Positions 3,096 to 31,899 are shown, numbered from the stretch's first letter. The stretch is DNA of 32,000 nucleotides from an uncultured Candidatus Saccharibacteria bacterium (GCA_964638435.1 CAZXAY010000002.1:15661-47660); one strand, 5' to 3'. The notes: a model not told the origin generated them from the sequence alone. Made by a program: numbers and translations.

Positions 3096-5192
3096 ATGGC
3101 GCGCGAATACAGCTTGGAAAACACTAGAAATATTGGAATAATTGCCCATATAGATGCCGGTAAAACCACAGTTACCGAGGGAATTTTGTATTTAACAGGT
3201 AAAACTCATAAAATCGGTGCAGTCCATGAGGGTGAAACCCAAATGGATTGGATGGAGCAAGAACGAGAACGTGGCATTACCATTACGGCAGCTGCTACTA
3301 CTTGTTTTTGGAAGCCAACAATCTATACAGGTGAATCTCATCGCATAAATATTATTGATACTCCGGGTCATATAGACTTTACTGTTGAAGTCCAAAGATC
3401 ATTAAGAGTATTAGATGGGGCTGTGGTAATTTTTGATGGTAAAATGGGAGTTGAGCCTCAAAGCGAAACTGTTTGGCGTCAAGCCGATAAATATGGTGTA
3501 CCAAGAATGTGTTTTATTAATAAAATTAATCAAACTGGTGGCGACTTTTATATGAGTTTGGACTCGATTCGTAAACGACTTTCTCCTAATGTCTATCCCA
3601 TCCAGATCCCCATTGGTTTTGAAAAAAATATAAATGGCATAATTGATTTAGTAAAAATGAAAACCTATACTTATCAAGATTTTCATGATAAAGAACTTGT
3701 TGAAGGTGAAATTCCAGCAGATCACAAAGAAAAAGCCGAAAAATATCGCCAAGAATTGCTTGAAAAAGTAGTCGAGTTCGATGATAATTTGATGGAAAAA
3801 TATTTAAATGGCGGTGATATTACCGAAGCTGAGTTTATTGGAGCAATTAGATCTAGTACTCTTAGTGGTACATTTTACCCAATTCTAGGTGGAGATGGTC
3901 GTGGAGTTATTGTCGAAACCTTGCTTGATGCTGTAATTAACTTTTTACCGTCACCGTTAGACTTGCCAGATACCGAAGGGTTAGACATCAAAGATTCAGA
4001 AAAAAAACTTACTCGCAAACCATCTGACGAAGAACCTTTTACAGCTTTAGCTTTTAAAGTAGCTACCGATCCATTTGTTGGCTCTCTTACCTTTTTTAGA
4101 GTTTACGCCGGATGTATTAAATGTGGTTCTTATGTCTTAAATTCTACTAAAGGCGAAAAAGAGAGAATTGGTCGTATTGTTAGATTACATGCTAATAAAA
4201 GAGAAGATGTCGACGAGGTTTTTTCAGGTGAAATTGCTGCAGCAGTTGGATTAAAGTATTCAACTACTGGTGATACGCTATGTGCTGAAAATGATCCAAT
4301 TATTTTGGAGCAAATCGAATTTCCGGAGCCTGTAATCTCGATGGCTATCGAGCCGAAAACCAAAGCTGATCAAGAAAAAATGGGTATTGCACTTAAAAAA
4401 CTTTCTGACGAGGATCCAACTTTTAGAATTAAAACTGATGAAGAAACAAATCAAACCTTGATTGCTGGAATGGGAGAACTCCATCTAGAAATCATCGTTG
4501 ATCGTATGAAGCGCGAGTTTAATGTTATGGCTAATGTCGGCCAGCCTCAAGTAGCTTATCGTGAGACTATTACTACTAGCGCCAAAGCAGAGGGCAAATA
4601 TATTCGTCAAACAGGTGGTCGTGGACAATATGGCCATGTTTGGTTAGAAGTTGCACCAGCAGAAGCTGGTAAAGGCTTTGAGTTTATTGATAAAATTGTT
4701 GGTGGTGCTATTCCTAAAGAATTTATCTCAGCAGTTAAAAAAGGTATTAAAGGTGCAGTTGACAGAGGTGTTATTGCTGGATATCCAATTGTTGATATAT
4801 CCGTTACTCTTTATGATGGATCATTCCACGAGGTTGACTCATCAGAATCTGCCTTCATGATCGCCGGATCAATGGCCCTTCAAGCTGCTGTTAAAAAAGC
4901 TAATCCAGTAATACTTGAACCGATAATGAAGGTAGAGGTAGTTACGCCAGAGGATTATTTTGGCGACGTGATGGGGGATTTAAATAGTAAACGTGGCCGA
5001 ATCGAAGAAACTGGTGAACGTGGTAATGCCAAAACAATTTTAGTTAAAGTTCCAATGTCAGAGATGTTCGGGTATGCCACAACCTTAAGAAGTATGTCTC
5101 AAGGACGAGCATCAAATACAATGGAATTTGACCATTATGAGGCGGTTCCACGTCATATAGCAGAACAATTGACAGAAGGTAAGAAGAAATAA
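3096..5192 (+). CDS. fusA: elongation factor G
   Basis: 698 aa with GTPase motifs [14 protein letters not shown] and NKID-like NKIN. EF-G domain IV/V blocks such as [16 protein letters not shown] are present. Confidence 0.96.
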
Positions 5193-7800: not shown

Positions 7801-7822
7801 AAATATTCGATTCTTACAAAAA

Positions 7823-7865
7823 GCGCCCTGAGCCTTCTGCACAATTGTGCTTAAAGCCCAGGGCG
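7823..7865. terminator. stem-loop between the convergent small ORF and the NTase gene (bidirectional terminator candidate)
   Basis: The outer stem is gcgccctg...cagggcg and encloses the perfect palindrome gcacaattgtgc. Confidence 0.5.
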
Positions 7866-7869
7866 TTCT

Positions 7870-9291
7870 TCATTTGTTTTGTTTATCATAAATTTGATTG
7901 CGTTGGCGGCAATTTTCAAGATATAACGACCACCAATTTTGCAAATCATTAATCAAAACTGGATTGCTTCGAAAATTACGTAGAGAGAACTCTGCAACTT
8001 CTTCATTTTCATCAAGTTTGAGCCAGGTAAAATCTGCATCATGAAGACGATATTCTTCTTTAAATATTCTAAATAACCATTTAAGAAGATTTTTCATCAT
8101 CCAGCGAGCAATACCTTCATCCTCCCCACGTTTTTCTATATTAATGAAAGGATACATTTTATGACAATTTTCTAACAAGTCAAAAATATTACGACACCTT
8201 CCATTGACACTTGAATGATGTTGAAAAACATAATTATACATTTCTATCTGTCTCATCTGATCAAGAAGATAATAAATTTTTTCTAACCTCTCGCAACAAT
8301 CTTCTTTATTAACTACGCGCACCACAAGCAAAAGAAATCTGATGCCCAAGAAGATTTGTAAGTTTTCTTTTTTGAGCAAAAATGAATTTGCCTTACCTTC
8401 ACTTACAAATTTAATCAATCTTTCTAGTGAACGCTCTTTAACAAATCGGTGACCTTTATGGGTAAAAGAATCTTTTCCATAAAGACCGTGGTCTGTTGCA
8501 CACGGCATGATTATTCCACTTTTTACAGATTCTTCGGCTTCTTTAGTATATATCAATCCTTTAGGACCCAATACACACTGATTCATTGTCACATCCCTAC
8601 TCGCTAAGACATGTAAGATATTTTTGTATAACTCTTTACCAGATTGATCTGTTTCGCCAACGAGTTGTAGAAATTTTACGCCAACTTCATCATCCTTTAC
8701 AAGGATATCGAAGTCACGAATTGGAATTTCTGGGGCGATTAAATCACTTTTAAAAAATGCTTTTAATACAAATCGTGCTGGTCCACCTTTATGCAATACC
8801 CCTTTAGCTAGAGGTATTTTTATTTGTAATTTCGATGATTCACAATAGATTAGCCAAATAATGTTTTCATCTCTAGCTATTGTCATCTCAGGGATAGTAT
8901 CTATAATTTGTTGAAGTGAGATAGAAAAAACATTAGATGGTAATATTAATTCTGGTTCAGGAAGACCATCTTTAATAATGTTTACCACATGAATAGCTGT
9001 GCGTGGAATGGAGCCATCTTTAATTTCAATTTCTCTTAGTGAATCCCAAATTAACGAAAAATATGTATTGATAAATTGCTGGACTTTGTAGTCAAAATCA
9101 GTTTTTCTGGATAACCTAACAAGAGCTGCGTAAAAAAGCATTCCCCATTTTTTTGGTTTTGCTTTGTTAACAATATTGATTAGATTATCATATAATTGTG
9201 AAAATTGTCTTAAGGCAACATCAGCTTTATCCGAAAAAATTCTACCACTGCTTACTATATATTTTTCAAGTCCTCTTGGATCTACCACCAT
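7870..9291 (-). CDS. divergent class-II (CCA-adding / poly(A) polymerase family)-like nucleotidyltransferase with an N-terminal extension
   Basis: Motif order is HKGGPARFVL...IRDFDILV (GGxxR...DxD, motif A-like) and then ASRDVTMNQ (RRDFTxNA, motif B-like). FVKERSLERLIKFVSE is a possible degenerate EDPLRxLRAxRF. The start is set at ATG 9291, 5 nt after SD ggaggtga. The ORF-track TTG at 9333 lies inside the promoter -10. Confidence 0.5.
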   Translation of the reverse strand: MVVDPRGLEKYIVSSGRIFSDKADVALRQFSQLYDNLINIVNKAKPKKWGMLFYAALVRLSRKTDFDYKVQQFINTYFSLIWDSLREIEIKDGSIPRTAIHVVNIIKDGLPEPELILPSNVFSISLQQIIDTIPEMTIARDENIIWLIYCESSKLQIKIPLAKGVLHKGGPARFVLKAFFKSDLIAPEIPIRDFDILVKDDEVGVKFLQLVGETDQSGKELYKNILHVLASRDVTMNQCVLGPKGLIYTKEAEESVKSGIIMPCATDHGLYGKDSFTHKGHRFVKERSLERLIKFVSEGKANSFLLKKENLQIFLGIRFLLLVVRVVNKEDCCERLEKIYYLLDQMRQIEMYNYVFQHHSSVNGRCRNIFDLLENCHKMYPFINIEKRGEDEGIARWMMKNLLKWLFRIFKEEYRLHDADFTWLKLDENEEVAEFSLRNFRSNPVLINDLQNWWSLYLENCRQRNQIYDKQNK

Positions 9292-9331
9292 AACTTTCAC
9301 CTCCAAATTGTTCAAGGACAAAGATGACTTC

Positions 9332-9360
9332 AATATAGCAATACACTAAGTGTATGTCAA
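9332..9360 (-). promoter_or_regulatory. consensus promoter (TTGACA-17-TATATT, minus strand) with an embedded palindromic operator-like site
   Basis: On the minus strand the -35 is at 9360-9355 and the -10 at 9337-9332. The spacer and -35 carry the perfect inverted repeat atacac-taa-gtgtat (9341-9355). Confidence 0.55.
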
Positions 9361-9611: not shown

Positions 9612-10403
9612 ATGGAATCAACCGAGAAAAATCCAATAGGAATTGCCTTCGGACTCAAAAATTCCAGACGTATGTTCTGGATCGAAACCACAGATACTGT
9701 TGAACAAGTCACCAGAGCCCTTATCAAGAGTGTTATCAAGGCAGCACCAGATGCTATAGCCCTTGGGTATGTCGGCGAAAAACCACGTGAGGCAATGCTG
9801 ACTGACCACGTGAAAGATCTGGTTCTCGTGATCGAGGTTGATAAGAAAAAACTCCACGATCTCCGAAGTGAATCCGACAAAAATCTGGAATTGGTAAGCC
9901 TAGTAGACCGCATTAACGCTTTCAAAGAAAGCGGTTGGCAGGCAGAATACTTTACCAGGTCAATGGCTGCAGTCCGCGGCTTTATCAAGACCGATCTTCT
10001 TAATCGTGTGGTTAACCGACGAGCTGTGGTCGATCGTGAAACTAAGATTCATGTCGGCTGGGCCTGGTTCAAAACACTTATCAACCACGCCAGCGAGATT
10101 CGCTGCCTGATCCTCAATGAACCCTTTGGCGCTACAGTGGAAAAAATCATGCCTGCTACTGAGAATAATGTGTCTCAACCGGTTATGGAAGATTCTTTGG
10201 TTTCCACAGAACCACCCATAGTTCAAATCGCATTCATCACCAAAGAAGTGTCTCAGTTGCCAAAACCTATGACCGAGCAAGTTCAGAAATCAGAAACGTT
10301 CGGTACACCACCAGTTAAAGCCAAGAGATCCAGCAAAAGGAAAAAGGTCGTCGAGGCTTCTCAGAATCAGGGCATCATTCAGGAAGTCGAAGTCGGAGCA
10401 TAG
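9612..10403 (+). CDS. hypothetical protein, compositionally foreign (higher G+C), with a basic disordered C-terminal tail
   Basis: SD aaaggagg (9598-9605) precedes ATG 9612. Codon usage (ATC, CTC, GAC, ACC, GTC) is unlike the AAA/ATT/TTA-rich host genes. The C-terminus PPVKAKRSSKRKKVV is Lys/Arg-rich. No family recognised. Confidence 0.6.
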   Translation: MESTEKNPIGIAFGLKNSRRMFWIETTDTVEQVTRALIKSVIKAAPDAIALGYVGEKPREAMLTDHVKDLVLVIEVDKKKLHDLRSESDKNLELVSLVDRINAFKESGWQAEYFTRSMAAVRGFIKTDLLNRVVNRRAVVDRETKIHVGWAWFKTLINHASEIRCLILNEPFGATVEKIMPATENNVSQPVMEDSLVSTEPPIVQIAFITKEVSQLPKPMTEQVQKSETFGTPPVKAKRSSKRKKVVEASQNQGIIQEVEVGA

Positions 10404-18642: not shown

Positions 18643-18841
18643 GGGTCTGTCGCCGAATGTGCTTTGGGAATGAAAATTAATCACATTTGAGCGAAAACTT
18701 TAGTAGATGACGATGCCTATCAGGTGATAAGCAGAGGAATATAATGAAGTTTGTCCTTCGACAGGCTCAGGATGGTGAGCAAAGTCGAACCACAGCCAAA
18801 TGTGGTAATTTTCAGCCAAAATGATGTTTGGCGACAAACCC
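18643..18841 (+). mobile_element. MITE copy 1 (~199 bp) between rplR and rpsE, flanked by the 5-bp direct duplication tctaa
   Basis: The ends are gggtctgtcgcc...ggcgacaaaccc. The arms stay complementary for ~50 nt. tctaa occurs at 18638-18642 and again at 18842-18846. By eye it is ~90% identical to the copies at 19855 and 24130. Confidence 0.85.
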
Positions 18842-19854: not shown

Positions 19855-20055
19855 GGGTCTGTCGCCGAATGTGCTTTGGGAATGAAAATTAATCATATTC
19901 GAGCGAAAACTTTAGTAAGCTACGATGCCTATCAGGTATGATAAGCAGAGAAGATTAATAAAGTTTGTCCTTCGACAGGCTCAGGATGGTGAGCAAAGTC
20001 GAACCACAGCCGAATATGGTAATTTTCAGCCAAAATGATGTTTGGCGACAGTCCC
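19855..20055 (+). mobile_element. MITE copy 2 (~201 bp) between rplO and secY, flanked by the 5-bp duplication taata
   Basis: The ends are gggtctgtcgcc...ggcgacagtccc. taata occurs at 19850-19854 and at 20056-20060. Confidence 0.85.
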
Positions 20056-24129: not shown

Positions 24130-24331
24130 GGGTGCTGTCGCTGAATGTGCTTTTGAGATTAAAATTAGCCACATTCGAGCGAAAACTTTAGTAGATGACG
24201 ATGCCTATCAGGTATGATAAGCGGAGGAGACTAATAAAGTTTGTCCTTCGACAGGCTCAGGATGGTGAGCAAAGTCGAACCACAGGCAAATGTGGTAATT
24301 TTTAGCCAAAATGACGTTTGGCGACAGCACC
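24130..24331 (+). mobile_element. MITE copy 3 (~202 bp) between infA and rpmJ, flanked by atta (4 bp clear, 5th position ambiguous)
   Basis: The ends gggtgctgtcgc...gcgacagcacc carry paired changes that keep the terminal stem. atta occurs at 24126-24129 and at 24332-24335. Confidence 0.8.
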
Positions 24332-29007: not shown

Positions 29008-29835
29008 ATGAACGGTCACTTACACCCAATAACTCAATTTAATCGACTAAGTCTTAAATATTTTCAAGACCTTGGTTTTGATATTAAAGAAGGTAATGAG
29101 ATAGAAAGCGAATGGTATAACTTTGATGCCTTGAATGTTCCAGCTGATCACCCATCACGTGATGTACAAGATACTTTCTGGCTTGCCCCGAGTAAGATCG
29201 AGGGGCTTGCTCCAGTAAAGTCCACCTCGGAGGTGGCCGAAGGACTCCTACGAGGTGAAAAAGAAGTACTTCGCACTCACACCTCAGGATCAGAGATGAA
29301 TATAATCAAAAATAATCAAATAAAACCTCCTTTTCGTATAATTGTTCCGGGGCGTTGTTATCGTAACGAAAGAACTGATTTAAAACACGAACACACCTTT
29401 AATCAAATAGATGGAATTATTTGTGATAAAAACGTTAATATGACCCATTTAATTGGAATTTTAGATGGTTGGATCAAATTTACTCTTGGTAAGGATGTTG
29501 AAACCCGCATTAGACCAAGCTACTTCCCTTTTGTAGAACCAGGACTCGAAATGGATATTAAACTTCCTGCATGTGGGCTTGCCCGCCGTAGCATCTCGGA
29601 TGGGACACGAATGAATAATTCGACGTGCAATACCGAGAGCGTAGGCGGGTGGAGGGAAATGCTTGGTGCTGGTATGGCTCACCCGATAGTTTTAAAAAAT
29701 ATGGGAATTGACCCAGACAAATATCAAGCAGCTATGTGGGGTCCTGGGATTGATCGCTTTACTATGATTAAATATGGTATTGATGATATTCGCCGTTTTC
29801 ATGGCCAGGATTTAAGATTTCTAAAACAATTTTGA
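29008..29835 (+). CDS. pheS: phenylalanine-tRNA ligase alpha subunit (N-terminally short, with two GC-rich in-frame insertions)
   Basis: Class II aaRS blocks HPSRDVQDTFW, LRTHTS, GRCYRNE, FNQIDG, PSYFPFVEPG, GAGMAHP and DLRFLKQF. It lacks the usual ~90-aa N-terminal coiled coil. Confidence 0.93.
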   Translation: MNGHLHPITQFNRLSLKYFQDLGFDIKEGNEIESEWYNFDALNVPADHPSRDVQDTFWLAPSKIEGLAPVKSTSEVAEGLLRGEKEVLRTHTSGSEMNIIKNNQIKPPFRIIVPGRCYRNERTDLKHEHTFNQIDGIICDKNVNMTHLIGILDGWIKFTLGKDVETRIRPSYFPFVEPGLEMDIKLPACGLARRSISDGTRMNNSTCNTESVGGWREMLGAGMAHPIVLKNMGIDPDKYQAAMWGPGIDRFTMIKYGIDDIRRFHGQDLRFLKQF

Positions 29836-29922
29836 TTAATAAAAGTTAGTATCTTGAATCTAGTATTAAGTATAAAATACTTACTTCTAGCTTCTAAATA
29901 CTAGATACTTAAGTAAAACAAT

Positions 29923-31899
29923 ATGAAACTATCACTTAATTGGCTCAAAGAATTTATAGATATCAAAGTTACTCCAGACCAGCTGGCACAGGATTTAAAT
30001 TCCTTTGGTCACGAGGTTGAGGATGTAATAAAAGTAGGGAATGATTATATCCTAGGTATAAGTATTACCGCTAATCGCGGTGATTGCCTATCAGTTTTAG
30101 GTATGGCCCGTGAAGTTGCTGCAATGTACAATTTAAAATTAAAAATTATAGATTATCCTATATCTCAAATTAATAAAAGTACAACTAATAAAAAAATAAA
30201 TGTTAAACTTAAGAATAAAGATATTTATGATGCATTTGACGTAGAAATTATCGAAAACATTAAAATTAAAGAAAGCCCTAAATGGCTACAGAATAAATTA
30301 AAATTAGTTGGCATAAAACCAATTAATAACATAGTTGATATAACAAATTTTGTAATGATAGAAACCGGTCAACCCATCCACGCCTTTGATTATAACAAAA
30401 TTAATAATGGTAATATGATTATTCGTTTGTCAAAAAAAAGTGAATGTATAGTAACATTGGATGGCAAAAATCGTCAGCTCGATAATAACTCAATCATTAT
30501 TGAAGATGGAAAAAAGATATTTGATCTTGCCGGTATTATGGGCGGTCAAAATAGCCAAATTGATAAAAATACCAAAACAATTGTTATGGAGGGTGGAGTT
30601 TTTAATAAAAAAACAATTAGAGCAACATCAAAATTATTAAAGCTTACCACTGATGCTTCCCATCGTTTCGAACGAGGTGTTGACGATAACAATACTTGCA
30701 AAGCTGTTGATAGGGCATCAGAGCTAGTAATTAATTTAGATCAAAACAGTAAAATTGTATATGTAATGGGCGCCCTCACTGATTTAAGAAAATCCAATAC
30801 AATTGACATTGATATAAACAGAATAAATAATCTATTAGGAACGAGATTAGAACCCAATCAAGTGATTGATTATTTATCGAGACTAAATATTATTACAGAT
30901 CAACAGATCAACAAATTAACAAATCAACTGACGTTTAATATTCCTTCATATAGAAAATATGATTTAACAATCTGGCAAGACATAGCAGAAGAAGTTGCGC
31001 GTGTTCATGGTTATGATAAAATAAGTAAAAGTTTACCAATTAAAACAAAATCGACACCCAACGAAAATTATAATAAAAAAGAATTGTTAAAAGATGTATT
31101 AGTTGAAAATGGATTTACAGAAATTTATTCATATTCATTTGCTGACGAAAAATTAATGACCATGTTAGGGAATAACCTAAACAAATCACGTCATGTCATT
31201 AATTCCGTAACACCAGAACTAACACACCTAAGAATGGATTTATTACCATCACTGCTAACTGCTATTAGCAAAAATCCTTGGGCCCCAGAGGTTAAGATTT
31301 TCGAAATAGGCAAAGTATTTAATGATAATGAAGAAAAATGGCAATTAGGTATTGCCGAGTGCAATAAAAACGGACAGGGGATTAAACAAGTTTTAGACAA
31401 ACTCAATATCAATTCATCAATAATAATTCCCGACCAAAAAGTATTAGACCATCTCAAAATCCGCCGCCCTGTTAGATATGTAATAATTGATTTGGATACC
31501 GCTACAAAACACCTCGGAGGTGGCCAGCTGGACTCCTGCGTGGTGGAAAATGGGTTGAATTCTACCCAAGAAATGCAATACAAACCTATCTCTCAATTTC
31601 CCCCAACCATCCGCGACCTTGCTTTTATAGTAAAAAACGATACTGATTCCGAACAAATCCGCTCTCACATCTTGTCTCTCGATCCGCATATCTTACTAGC
31701 TGAACTTTTTGACGAATTTAATTTTCCATCTGCGCCATCAGTCAATAATCAGCGTGATCTGCGTAACATGAAAAATGTAGCTTATCACATCTGGCTTCAG
31801 GATCTTAATAAACCCATGAATCCAGAACATGTTGATAATATTACAAAACAAATCATTAAAAGCGTTGAATCAAAATTTAAAGCTAAATTAAGACAATAA
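29923..31899 (+). CDS. pheT: phenylalanine-tRNA ligase beta subunit (short form, no N-terminal OB/tRNA-binding insert)
   Basis: MKLSLNWLKEFI start, ITANRGDCLS, HAFD, and the B3/4, B5 and FDX-ACB order (ISQFPPTIRDLAF). 658 aa. Confidence 0.92.
   Translation: MKLSLNWLKEFIDIKVTPDQLAQDLNSFGHEVEDVIKVGNDYILGISITANRGDCLSVLGMAREVAAMYNLKLKIIDYPISQINKSTTNKKINVKLKNKDIYDAFDVEIIENIKIKESPKWLQNKLKLVGIKPINNIVDITNFVMIETGQPIHAFDYNKINNGNMIIRLSKKSECIVTLDGKNRQLDNNSIIIEDGKKIFDLAGIMGGQNSQIDKNTKTIVMEGGVFNKKTIRATSKLLKLTTDASHRFERGVDDNNTCKAVDRASELVINLDQNSKIVYVMGALTDLRKSNTIDIDINRINNLLGTRLEPNQVIDYLSRLNIITDQQINKLTNQLTFNIPSYRKYDLTIWQDIAEEVARVHGYDKISKSLPIKTKSTPNENYNKKELLKDVLVENGFTEIYSYSFADEKLMTMLGNNLNKSRHVINSVTPELTHLRMDLLPSLLTAISKNPWAPEVKIFEIGKVFNDNEEKWQLGIAECNKNGQGIKQVLDKLNINSSIIIPDQKVLDHLKIRRPVRYVIIDLDTATKHLGGGQLDSCVVENGLNSTQEMQYKPISQFPPTIRDLAFIVKNDTDSEQIRSHILSLDPHILLAELFDEFNFPSAPSVNNQRDLRNMKNVAYHIWLQDLNKPMNPEHVDNITKQIIKSVESKFKAKLRQ

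Follow-up and report, generated by a model that had tools for sequence, protein, structure and literature searches.

Results

Features of the pheS-pheT locus

The DNA analysed here is a stretch of 32,000 nucleotides from an uncultured Candidatus Saccharibacteria bacterium (GCA_964638435.1 CAZXAY010000002.1:15661-47660), to which we refer as the window, and our subject is a short GC-rich insert in its pheS gene, part of which recurs in pheT. Judged from its open reading frames (ORFs) and from Pfam-annotated syntenic relatives, the window carries mainly ribosomal-protein genes, after which pheS and pheT form its end; its GC content is 33%, and no genes for tRNAs or for transfer-messenger RNA (tmRNA) were found in it. 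The PheS protein matches the alpha chains of phenylalanyl-tRNA synthetase (PheRS) in the PDB with E=1e-56, and its homologues carry the domain PF01409; the closest named ones stem from Candidatus Berkelbacteria, a lineage of the candidate phyla radiation (CPR). Much of bacterial diversity belongs to the CPR, whose members possess tiny genomes with almost no non-coding space. The closest relative that we found, L001 (PheS P0001), has a pheS gene that is 89% identical to that of the window at the nucleotide level outside of an alignment gap (pairwise DNA alignment), and its pheT orthologue encodes the Pfam domains B3_4, B5, tRNA_synthFbeta and FDX-ACB. A small PQ-loop gene is present between pheS and pheT in L001 (3391-3675) and absent from the window, where the spacer measures 87 nt; pheT of L001 also contains several further short inserts, none of which it has in common with the window.

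With its 275 amino acids, PheS of the window is longer than most Berkelbacteria-like PheS proteins (228-232 amino acids), and in a comparison with solved PheRS structures its residues ~62-85 and ~185-212 are unmatched in the E. coli protein. The GC-richest islands of the whole window (maximum 0.65 in a 40-nt sliding window) lie at 29167-29267 and 29553-29690 in pheS and at 31489-31562 in pheT. The conspicuously GC-rich, in-frame extra stretch that an earlier note on this DNA had placed at 29186-29257 is thereby confirmed.

Table 1. Position and basis of the features in the pheS-pheT region of the window.
Feature	Position	Strand	Basis
pheS, 275 aa, alpha subunit of phenylalanyl-tRNA synthetase in its short CPR form; hosts the insert	29008-29835	+	ORF
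66-nt (22-codon) stretch of pheS, missing from pheS of L001	29182-29247	+	pairwise DNA alignment; 33-sequence protein alignment
Family-2 unit, 24 nt, CTTGCCCCGAGTAAGATCGAGGGG, translated LAPSKIEG	29182-29205	+	pattern match, covering 29181-29206
Linker CTTGCTCCAGTAAAGTC	29206-29222	+	direct reading; like the first 18 nt of the unit at 29182-29205 (14/18 aligned columns)
Family-1 hairpin module of pheS, CACCTCGGAGGTGGCC-GAA-GGACTCCTACGAGGTG, read (S)TSEVAEGLLRG	29223-29257	+	exact 16-mer, fold, covariance model R1
pheS insertion 2, ~24 extra in-frame codons, long GC-rich hairpin	29569-29649	+	alignment gaps; fold of -41.6 kcal/mol, z=-2.7
pheT, phenylalanyl-tRNA synthetase beta subunit, 658 aa; hosts the second module copy	29923-31899	+	ORF
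Family-1 hairpin module of pheT, CACCTCGGAGGTGGCC-AGCT-GGACTCCTGCGTGGTG, read HLGGGQLDSCVV; slightly decayed, two stem pairs broken	31510-31545	+	

Composition of the pheS insert

The earlier note had expected a lineage-specific insertion, and orthologue alignment agrees with this view insofar as 66 nt of the window gene are missing from pheS of L001 (Table 1). Since the hairpin module continues over the following 10 nt (CTACGAGGTG), the gap could be shifted by a few nt. The notion that the insert is one element did not survive our analysis. Its 5' half, going beyond what had been noticed, belongs to a different and far more widespread 24-nt repeat (family 2); the linker that follows resembles this unit and is therefore, to judge from direct reading without a statistic, probably a truncated second family-2 unit; the remainder is a 35-nt hairpin module (family 1). 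Consequently, the pheS insert is composite. The predicted peptide across it reads ...VKSTSEVAEGLLRGEK..., and another predicted insert-junction peptide reads ...NTSGVGFDSPEVE.... In an AlphaFold model for which the 33-sequence alignment was used, the predicted local distance difference test (pLDDT) score is <50 at residues 55-93 and 193-210, which are the two PheS inserts, and the catalytic core is modelled confidently. Such low scores are consistent with exposed loops, a point that the earlier note had wanted to see modelled, and they are no proof of them.

L001 lacks the first insert of pheS and retains the second one (insertion 2), which is a third kind of GC hairpin, distinct from the family-1 module. 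The 5' arm of insertion 2 (GGGCTTGCCCGCCGTAGC) recurs as GGCTTGCCCGCCGTAGCTTTAGCGGAGGCGGGGAC in an unrelated gene of L055, and the insertion is located at the position of a Cys-rich segment in PheS of Staphylococcus (2rhq). This segment is a zinc knuckle; insertion 2 occupies the site at which other bacteria have a Zn-knuckle.

Behind the DTFW motif, the site of the first insert shows variation in many bacteria, and it is occupied by other inserts in many Berkelbacteria-like PheS proteins. Other, nested versions of the family-2 motif, all beginning with CTTGC(C/T)(C/T)CGA, are found at the same pheS position in L078, L079 and L081; hence, this loop is a repeatedly used landing site. Different GC-rich inserts occupy the same two loop positions in Berkelbacteria-like pheS genes (site 2 of L078 at ~5040-5110; site 1 of L079 and L081), some of them nested in each other, as in CTTGTCCCGCC-TGTCCCGAGTATGGCCGAGGGA-AGCAATGTCGAGGGG. 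Further inserts follow VLKNM and DPEK in other PheS homologues.

A hairpin module common to pheS and pheT

The 16-mer CACCTCGGAGGTGGCC is present exactly at 29223 in pheS and at 31510 in pheT, and at no other site of the window; its chance expectation is 0.02 matches, and none of 100 shuffles reached the observed count. The modules that begin with it have 30 bases in common, differ by one 1-nt indel and few substitutions, and are read as STSEVAEGLLRGE in pheS and as HLGGGQLDSCVVE in pheT. The recurrence of the pheS module in another frame of pheT, as described in the earlier note, was thus reproduced, and the nucleotide match between the two copies lies well beyond chance. The hairpins proposed for the pheS region were recovered as well: the segment 29180-29262 folds with -33.4 kcal/mol (z=-2.7), and the pheS module by itself with -17.7 kcal/mol (z=-2.85), a fold that none of 200 shuffles equalled. 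The pheT copy folds more weakly (z=-1.2) because two of its stem pairs are broken. Covariance model R1 recognises both modules, that of pheS with 52.5 bits (E=3.5e-08) and that of pheT with 49.4 bits (E=1.4e-07), and finds no other copy in the 32 kb. No Rfam family matched the window at its gathering score; at a permissive score, two sub-threshold matches at chance level were obtained in 29100-31700.

L001 carries the module in its pheT gene (CACCTCGGGGGTGGGCATTTGACTCCCGCGAGGTG) with the 5' half in another frame (read TPRGWAFDSREV), so that the frames of the window copy and the L001 copy differ, and with a compensatory A-T to G-C change in the stem. The module is missing from pheT of the more distant relatives L081 and L082, which again fits a lineage-specific insertion.

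Distribution and structure of family 1

With every bacterial and archaeal species represented by one genome, a scan with the family-1 pattern (CACCTCGGNGGTGGNC-N2-6-GACTCCNNCG) yielded 76 loci, ~66 of which lie in assemblies with 33-52% GC and ~10 in genomes with 69-78% GC. The former are distributed over ~46 CPR assemblies, mostly of Microgenomates, and every one of them extends past the pattern with (A/G)(A/G)GG(T/C)(A/G), usually AGGTG, a continuation that the pattern did not specify. In the latter, which belong to Actinomycetes or Pseudomonadales, matching stops at the pattern edge, and we therefore regard them as chance or gene-specific matches. By our own estimate, ~0.03 family-1 matches would be expected by chance in AT-rich DNA. 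A looser search over the fetched loci, the window and L001 gave 83 family-1 copies, corresponding to 68 distinct sites after orthologous copies had been merged. Together with the ~66 loci of the scan, these copies support the proposal of a small palindromic DNA element that inserts in coding regions and leaves the frame unbroken; being dispersed and read in all six frames, they are neither unique to pheS and pheT nor conserved at the amino-acid level.

Hosts of family 1 comprise Daviesbacteria, Gottesmanbacteria, Levybacteria, Curtissbacteria, Chisholmbacteria, Blackburnbacteria and other Microgenomates; the purL gene of Daviesbacteria L040 contains a 35-mer identical to the pheS module of the window over all 35 nt. 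The element also occurs in ~17 assemblies titled "uncultured Gammaproteobacteria" (binchicken/co-assembly metagenome-assembled genomes [MAGs] with 34-50% GC; L003, L009, L019, L027, L029, L030, L055, L060 and others). Proteins of the few assemblies that we compared are 70-80% identical to Daviesbacteria/Microgenomates orthologues, which suggests that the label is wrong and that these MAGs are probably mislabelled CPR bacteria.

The core of the 83 copies is 33-37 nt long and thus not always a multiple of three. Its consensus, CACCTCGG(G/A)GG-T-GG(G/C)C-[TTT or GAA(T)G]-GAC-T-CC(C/T)CCGAGGTG, behind which GA or AA stands as a rule, forms a hairpin of 34-36 nt with a perfect 11-bp stem, a T.T mismatch and a small, conserved and asymmetric apex; two complementary arms of ~11-13 nt (CACCTCSGRGGTG) are joined by 8-12 nt. 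Each arm (CACCTCSGAGGTG) is itself a palindrome, e.g., at 29223-29235 and 29245-29257 of the window, and GGAGGUG will therefore appear in the mRNA whichever way the element is oriented. Among 48 distinct sequences, 5 of the 14 pairs have changed on both sides (31 cells), and none of 500 shuffles reached either the covariation or the paired fraction; shifting the pairing partner destroys the pairing. At pair 9-29, 25 sequences have A-U and 18 have G-C; pair 8-30 is G-C (n=27) or A-U (n=7), and pair 6-32 is C-G (n=44) or G-C (n=4). Pairing in the stem is kept by compensatory change. As different stem variants exist together in one genome (e.g., in L049, L034 and L005), the symmetry of the element reflects base pairing and not two half-sites that follow the specificity of a protein.

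The same terminal arms also enclose other interiors, either nested GC hairpins of 20-35 nt or AT-rich loops of 14 nt (L025 260 and 1529; L026 5731; L027 5162, 5507 and 5554; L044 2599; L009 538; L060 3772; L072 4600). The sharing of arms between different interiors suggests a superfamily of elements that the arms define. Two direct copies of CT(A/T)ACCTC(C/T)CACCGC-CACCTCSGAGGTGG are located 2.5 kb apart in L079 (60-72 and 2539-2551), where they flank a block of small ORFs, including that of a HicA toxin, upstream of the ribosomal operon; they perhaps serve as terminators or delimit an inserted segment.

Coding context of family 1

Sixty-four of the 68 family-1 sites lie inside ORFs of at least 100 codons, 30 in sense and 34 in antisense orientation and in all six frames; only four are located outside of long open frames. 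Random 36-nt windows of the same loci fall inside such ORFs in 90% of cases, and coding DNA is therefore not avoided by family 1. Besides PheS and PheT, the host proteins include PolyA_pol/CCA enzyme, YchF, RF-1, TsaD (twice), a class-V aminotransferase, MgsA/RarA, tRNA-guanine transglycosylase (TGT), ProRS, RecG and topoisomerase I (TopA). Single tblastn alignments cross the element with both flanks in one frame, and several orthologue pairs are filled versus empty for the element, as are the pheS genes of the window and L001. Family-1 copies are hence inserted at many unrelated positions of AT-rich CPR genomes, nearly always in genes and in any orientation and frame, and the reading frame is retained across them.

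Every intragenic copy leaves the frame of its host open on both sides. The sole sense frame of the 34-nt variant that would create a TGA is never used, and the favoured frames of both length variants read the 3' arm as ...P-E-V. Such a pattern of an unused stop frame and a frame bias is sensible only if ribosomes read the sequence, and family-1 inserts are thus most likely translated.

The 24-nt unit of family 2

The pattern of family 2 (GCTTGCCCCGAG-N4-5-TCGAGGGGC), which pheS site 2 of L078 also has on the minus strand, matched at least 120 loci in a metagenome scan, with unrelated flanks and in hosts with 30-71% GC. Among the matches listed, the spacer is strongly non-random (CGGAG 21 times, CGAAG 18 times, CGCAG nine times), and 24 of 27 copies in AT-rich hosts lie in ORFs of at least 100 codons, again in all six frames. 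The peptides read in these hosts comprise LAPSGVEG, PLDSARGKP, LPRAESRG, APRLRSGQA and CPELVEG. Metagenome contigs with 67-69% GC harbour head-to-tail tandem arrays with a period of 24 nt, or 8 codons (L095 4343-4416; L127 170-243), and the unit is therefore not limited to the CPR or to AT-rich genomes.

Three copies of a ~193-nt repeat are present in the window at 18645-18837, 19859-20051 and 24135-24327 (90-92% identical in blastn). This repeat resembles a MITE (miniature inverted-repeat transposable element), has terminal inverted repeats of ~25-32 nt and is located in intergenic spacers of the ribosomal-protein operon; within its GC-rich core (TGTCCTTCGACAGGCTCAGGATGGTGAGCAAAGTCGAACC) are GAGC-N-GTCGA motifs, which are related to those of the 24-nt unit. 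Elsewhere in the window, a GC-rich palindrome with 30-nt arms (7819-7870) adjoins the 3' end of a minus-strand ORF (7870-9333), and a 263-codon ORF (9612-10403) has several stretches with 55-60% GC, compared with the 33% average of the window.

Behaviour of family 1 at orthologous sites

Orthologous insertions were compared in five groups. Identity amounts to 88-100% in the element and to 62-81% in the 90-nt flanks, and most of the differences within the element are compensatory. The hairpin consequently evolves more slowly than the codons around it, an aspect that had not been recognised in the earlier note, and this excess of conservation calls for ongoing homogenisation or for selection on the sequence. 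Identity of the flanks does not rise toward the element at these sites; its boundaries are therefore sharp, and a recent homing that involved flanking homology is unsupported. Between the different family-1 loci, the flanks show no homology.

At one orthologous codon position, the element of L024 (3923-3956) is inverted relative to those of L009 (1700), L019 (2814) and L030 (6148). Either the ~12 nt in the centre, between the palindromic arms, have flipped, or a second element was inserted at this position; the loop of the element can flip. At the purL site, three genomes show three different combinations of frame and orientation. Since frame and orientation vary at orthologous sites, it is the nucleotide sequence that is conserved and not the peptide. 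For the same reason, we rejected selection at the peptide level.

Discussion

Origin of the inserts

The pheS insert of the window is, in our assessment, probably a composite of two unrelated, short, GC-rich dispersed repeats that were inserted as DNA and are translated within PheS. The hairpin or a corresponding cruciform would form in vivo and be recognised or repaired as such. Copying would most likely be carried out in trans by a structure-specific enzyme, as has been proposed for REP-associated tyrosine transposases (RAYTs) and repetitive extragenic palindromic (REP) elements; alternatively, a transposase might read the arms as terminal inverted repeats. The copies that survive selection would be those that add whole codons, bring no stop codon and come to lie in tolerant surface loops. 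If only such frame-keeping, loop-tolerated copies persist, this would explain why the essential pheS and pheT genes carry them as extra loop residues.

Several of our observations weigh against this interpretation. No target-site duplication was detected in the 34-nt class, in which flank dinucleotides match 11 times versus 8.8 expected from shuffles (P=0.2). An exploratory tblastn search with an IS200 TnpA query, which counts as weak evidence, found nothing in the 1.39 Mb of fetched loci, and a scan of the 8-kb loci for solitary arms returned only short variants with other interiors and no arm pair that encloses a gene. Viral contigs gave 0 matches each for the family-1 and family-2 patterns, which leaves a phage vector without evidence. 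Conservation above the level of the flanking codons is unlike the behaviour of a decaying selfish insert. The empty pheS site of L001 retains CTAGAGGGT, which is like the 3' end of a family-1 element, and the difference between the two pheS genes could therefore be a deletion in L001 instead of a gain in the lineage of the window. Finally, our case for translation of the inserts draws on sequence data.

We rejected two further candidates. A clustered regularly interspaced short palindromic repeat (CRISPR) would not fit a sequence of which a locus nearly always contains a single copy and which is not regularly spaced, and a DNA-uptake sequence would not fit copies that are extra DNA relative to the orthologues rather than motifs made by substitution.

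A possible function of the hairpin

The conservation of the hairpin is also what an alternative explanation would predict, in which it is a cis-acting RNA or single-stranded DNA signal within coding regions that benefits the host, spread by insertion and kept by selection. Such a signal could be a site at which translation pauses or the ribosome makes contact, a target for processing of the RNase III type, or a site to which a structure-specific protein binds on the DNA, and all of them would be compatible with the composite of inserted repeats that we favour. Not only does the element surpass the surrounding codons in conservation at the five orthologous site groups, with mostly compensatory differences, its apex is conserved as well as its stem. 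Moreover, the outer 6 bp (CACCUC:GAGGUG) are identical to the helix between the anti-Shine-Dalgarno sequence at the 3' end of 16S rRNA and the Shine-Dalgarno sequence, and GGAGGUG is offered by the mRNA in both orientations. However, the insert is missing from pheS of L001 and the module from the distant pheT genes, so that neither is needed for these essential enzymes; the two loop orientations relative to transcription are about equal in number, which argues against a loop-specific function in mRNA; and the host genes are without a common theme and no Rfam family matches. We hence consider a host-beneficial signal unlikely.

More broadly, we advance a tentative view, to which we give more room than to a beneficial signal and less than to the composite origin of the pheS insert. 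Structure-defined elements of 24-36 nt would form a class without earlier description and populate essential genes of the CPR, with the 24-nt family reaching far beyond it; they would not be passive relics of the kind known from Rickettsia, and their nucleotides would be actively held constant, either by an enzyme system specific for the hairpin or by a function of the hairpin. Given that its outer stem is identical to the anti-Shine-Dalgarno:Shine-Dalgarno helix, the hairpin may act on the ribosome or on DNA.

Other readings of the pheS insert

A stem that is very stable and GC-rich, and a core of 33-37 nt that is not always a multiple of three, might suggest that the hairpin escapes translation altogether, being excised from the mRNA as introns are or passed over by the ribosome in the manner of T4 gene 60 or mitochondrial byp elements. 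Short GC-rich bypassed inserts do exist in yeast mitochondria. Yet, the host frame is open on both sides of every intragenic copy, the stop frame is never used and the frames are biased to the mildest peptides, the last two of which would be irrelevant if the sequence were unread; furthermore, no pair of take-off and landing codons with a stop is visible in pheS or pheT. Removal or bypass is for these reasons very improbable.

It is even harder to maintain that the insert is an ordinary variable loop of PheS which resembles pheT by chance, local duplication or gene conversion. The variability of the site behind DTFW, with its other inserts in many Berkelbacteria-like proteins, would accord with this idea, as would the position of the two copies in adjacent genes and the lack of another copy in the 32 kb by the covariance model. 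It is already refuted by the 68 unrelated sites, the ~46 other assemblies and the identical 35-mer in purL of Daviesbacteria, and a 16-mer expected 0.02 times in the window speaks against it as well. An assembly or sequencing artefact (adapter, chimeric junction) could come to mind as all sources are metagenome assemblies, but it is practically negligible given independent projects and assemblers (Logan, NCBI MAGs of several groups, the closed Daviesbacteria chromosome CP066688.1) and an element that is always in frame, varies in a compensatory manner and is inherited at orthologous sites.

Implications

The finding in the window is one instance of a widespread phenomenon: short, GC-rich, structured elements have spread through essential genes of the CPR, among them those for aminoacyl-tRNA synthetases, a release factor, a topoisomerase and tRNA-modification enzymes. 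Odd, lineage-specific peptides of CPR and metagenomic proteins, such as TSGVGFDSPEV, HLGGGRMDSPEV, LAPSGVEG, PLDSARGKP and RSGQA, would accordingly be translated repeats and not adaptive protein features, a distinction that matters when such proteins are aligned, annotated, placed in phylogenies or modelled in structure. Insertion elements are apparently able to persist at ~35 nt, the size of a REP element, and still reside inside genes. At the same time, a hairpin that is conserved above its neighbouring codons poses the concrete question of what recognises or maintains it.

Comparison with known systems

The elements belong to the in-frame palindromic insertion elements and are apparently undescribed; we found no description of them in the open-access literature. 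In composition and context, family 1 is like the GC clusters and byp elements of yeast mitochondria, which are short, GC-rich, palindromic mini-elements of a very AT-rich genome that also occur inside coding sequence. The latter are, however, organellar, and ribosomes skip byp elements, in contrast to family 1, for which the statistics of frames and stops indicate translation. Bypass elements in general (T4 gene 60, byp) interrupt the reading frame or bring a stop, and they have take-off and landing codons that match; in family 1, every intragenic copy can be read through and the stop frame is unused.

Coding DNA with dyad symmetry that is horizontally distributed among unrelated microbes is known from palindromic amphipathic repeat coding elements (PARCELs) (PMC2996958). 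PARCELs are 25-residue domains that are arrayed in tandem, show conservation at the protein level and belong to proteins to which no function is assigned; family 1, in contrast, occurs as single copies in housekeeping enzymes and is conserved at the nucleotide level only. Some MITEs are found in frame in genes (PMC10969869). With MITEs such as Correia, Chunjie and Nezha, family 1 shares the character of a non-autonomous dispersed repeat with terminal inverted repeats, its arms being common to different variants. MITEs are typically 50-500 bp long, AT-rich, intergenic and provided with target-site duplications; family 1 consists of two arms plus 8-12 nt, without a detectable duplication, and no parent insertion sequence was found in the 8-kb loci.

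REP elements are GC-rich imperfect hairpins of ~35 bp (21-65) with many copies, and an IS200/IS605-like tyrosine transposase has been suggested to mobilise them in trans (PMC3184786). Family 1 corresponds to REP elements and bacterial interspersed mosaic elements (BIMEs) in being an imperfect GC-rich palindrome of REP size with many dispersed copies. The stems of REP elements are kept by compensatory change. Yet, REP elements are extragenic by definition and family 1 is intragenic at 94% of its sites; some REP families possess a 5' GTAG head, whereas the 5' flank of family 1 is A-rich and free of GTAG; and no RAYT-like gene was seen in the 1.39 Mb of loci by the exploratory tblastn search with the IS200 TnpA query.

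The earlier note had drawn an analogy to Rickettsia palindromic elements (RPEs), palindromic repeats that lie in frame in unrelated, often essential genes of a small AT-rich genome as apparently tolerated surface segments (PMC10969869, PMC3184786). They are ~105-146 bp long (PMC3184786), and each RPE family is read in one frame and yields a conserved peptide (PMC10969869). Family 1 is RPE-like in that it is found in frame in unrelated genes (64 of 68 sites in ORFs of at least 100 codons), and it departs from RPEs in that its core of 33-37 nt is about four times smaller and in that it is read in all six frames without a single conserved peptide. Compared by their descriptions, RPEs are confined to Rickettsia, and family 1 extends over several CPR classes, is GC-rich and is conserved above its flanks. 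The analogy consequently stands for the effect, which is that palindromic inserts lie in frame within genes essential to a reduced genome, and fails for membership, given the size, the GC-richness, the use of any frame and the CPR hosts of family 1.

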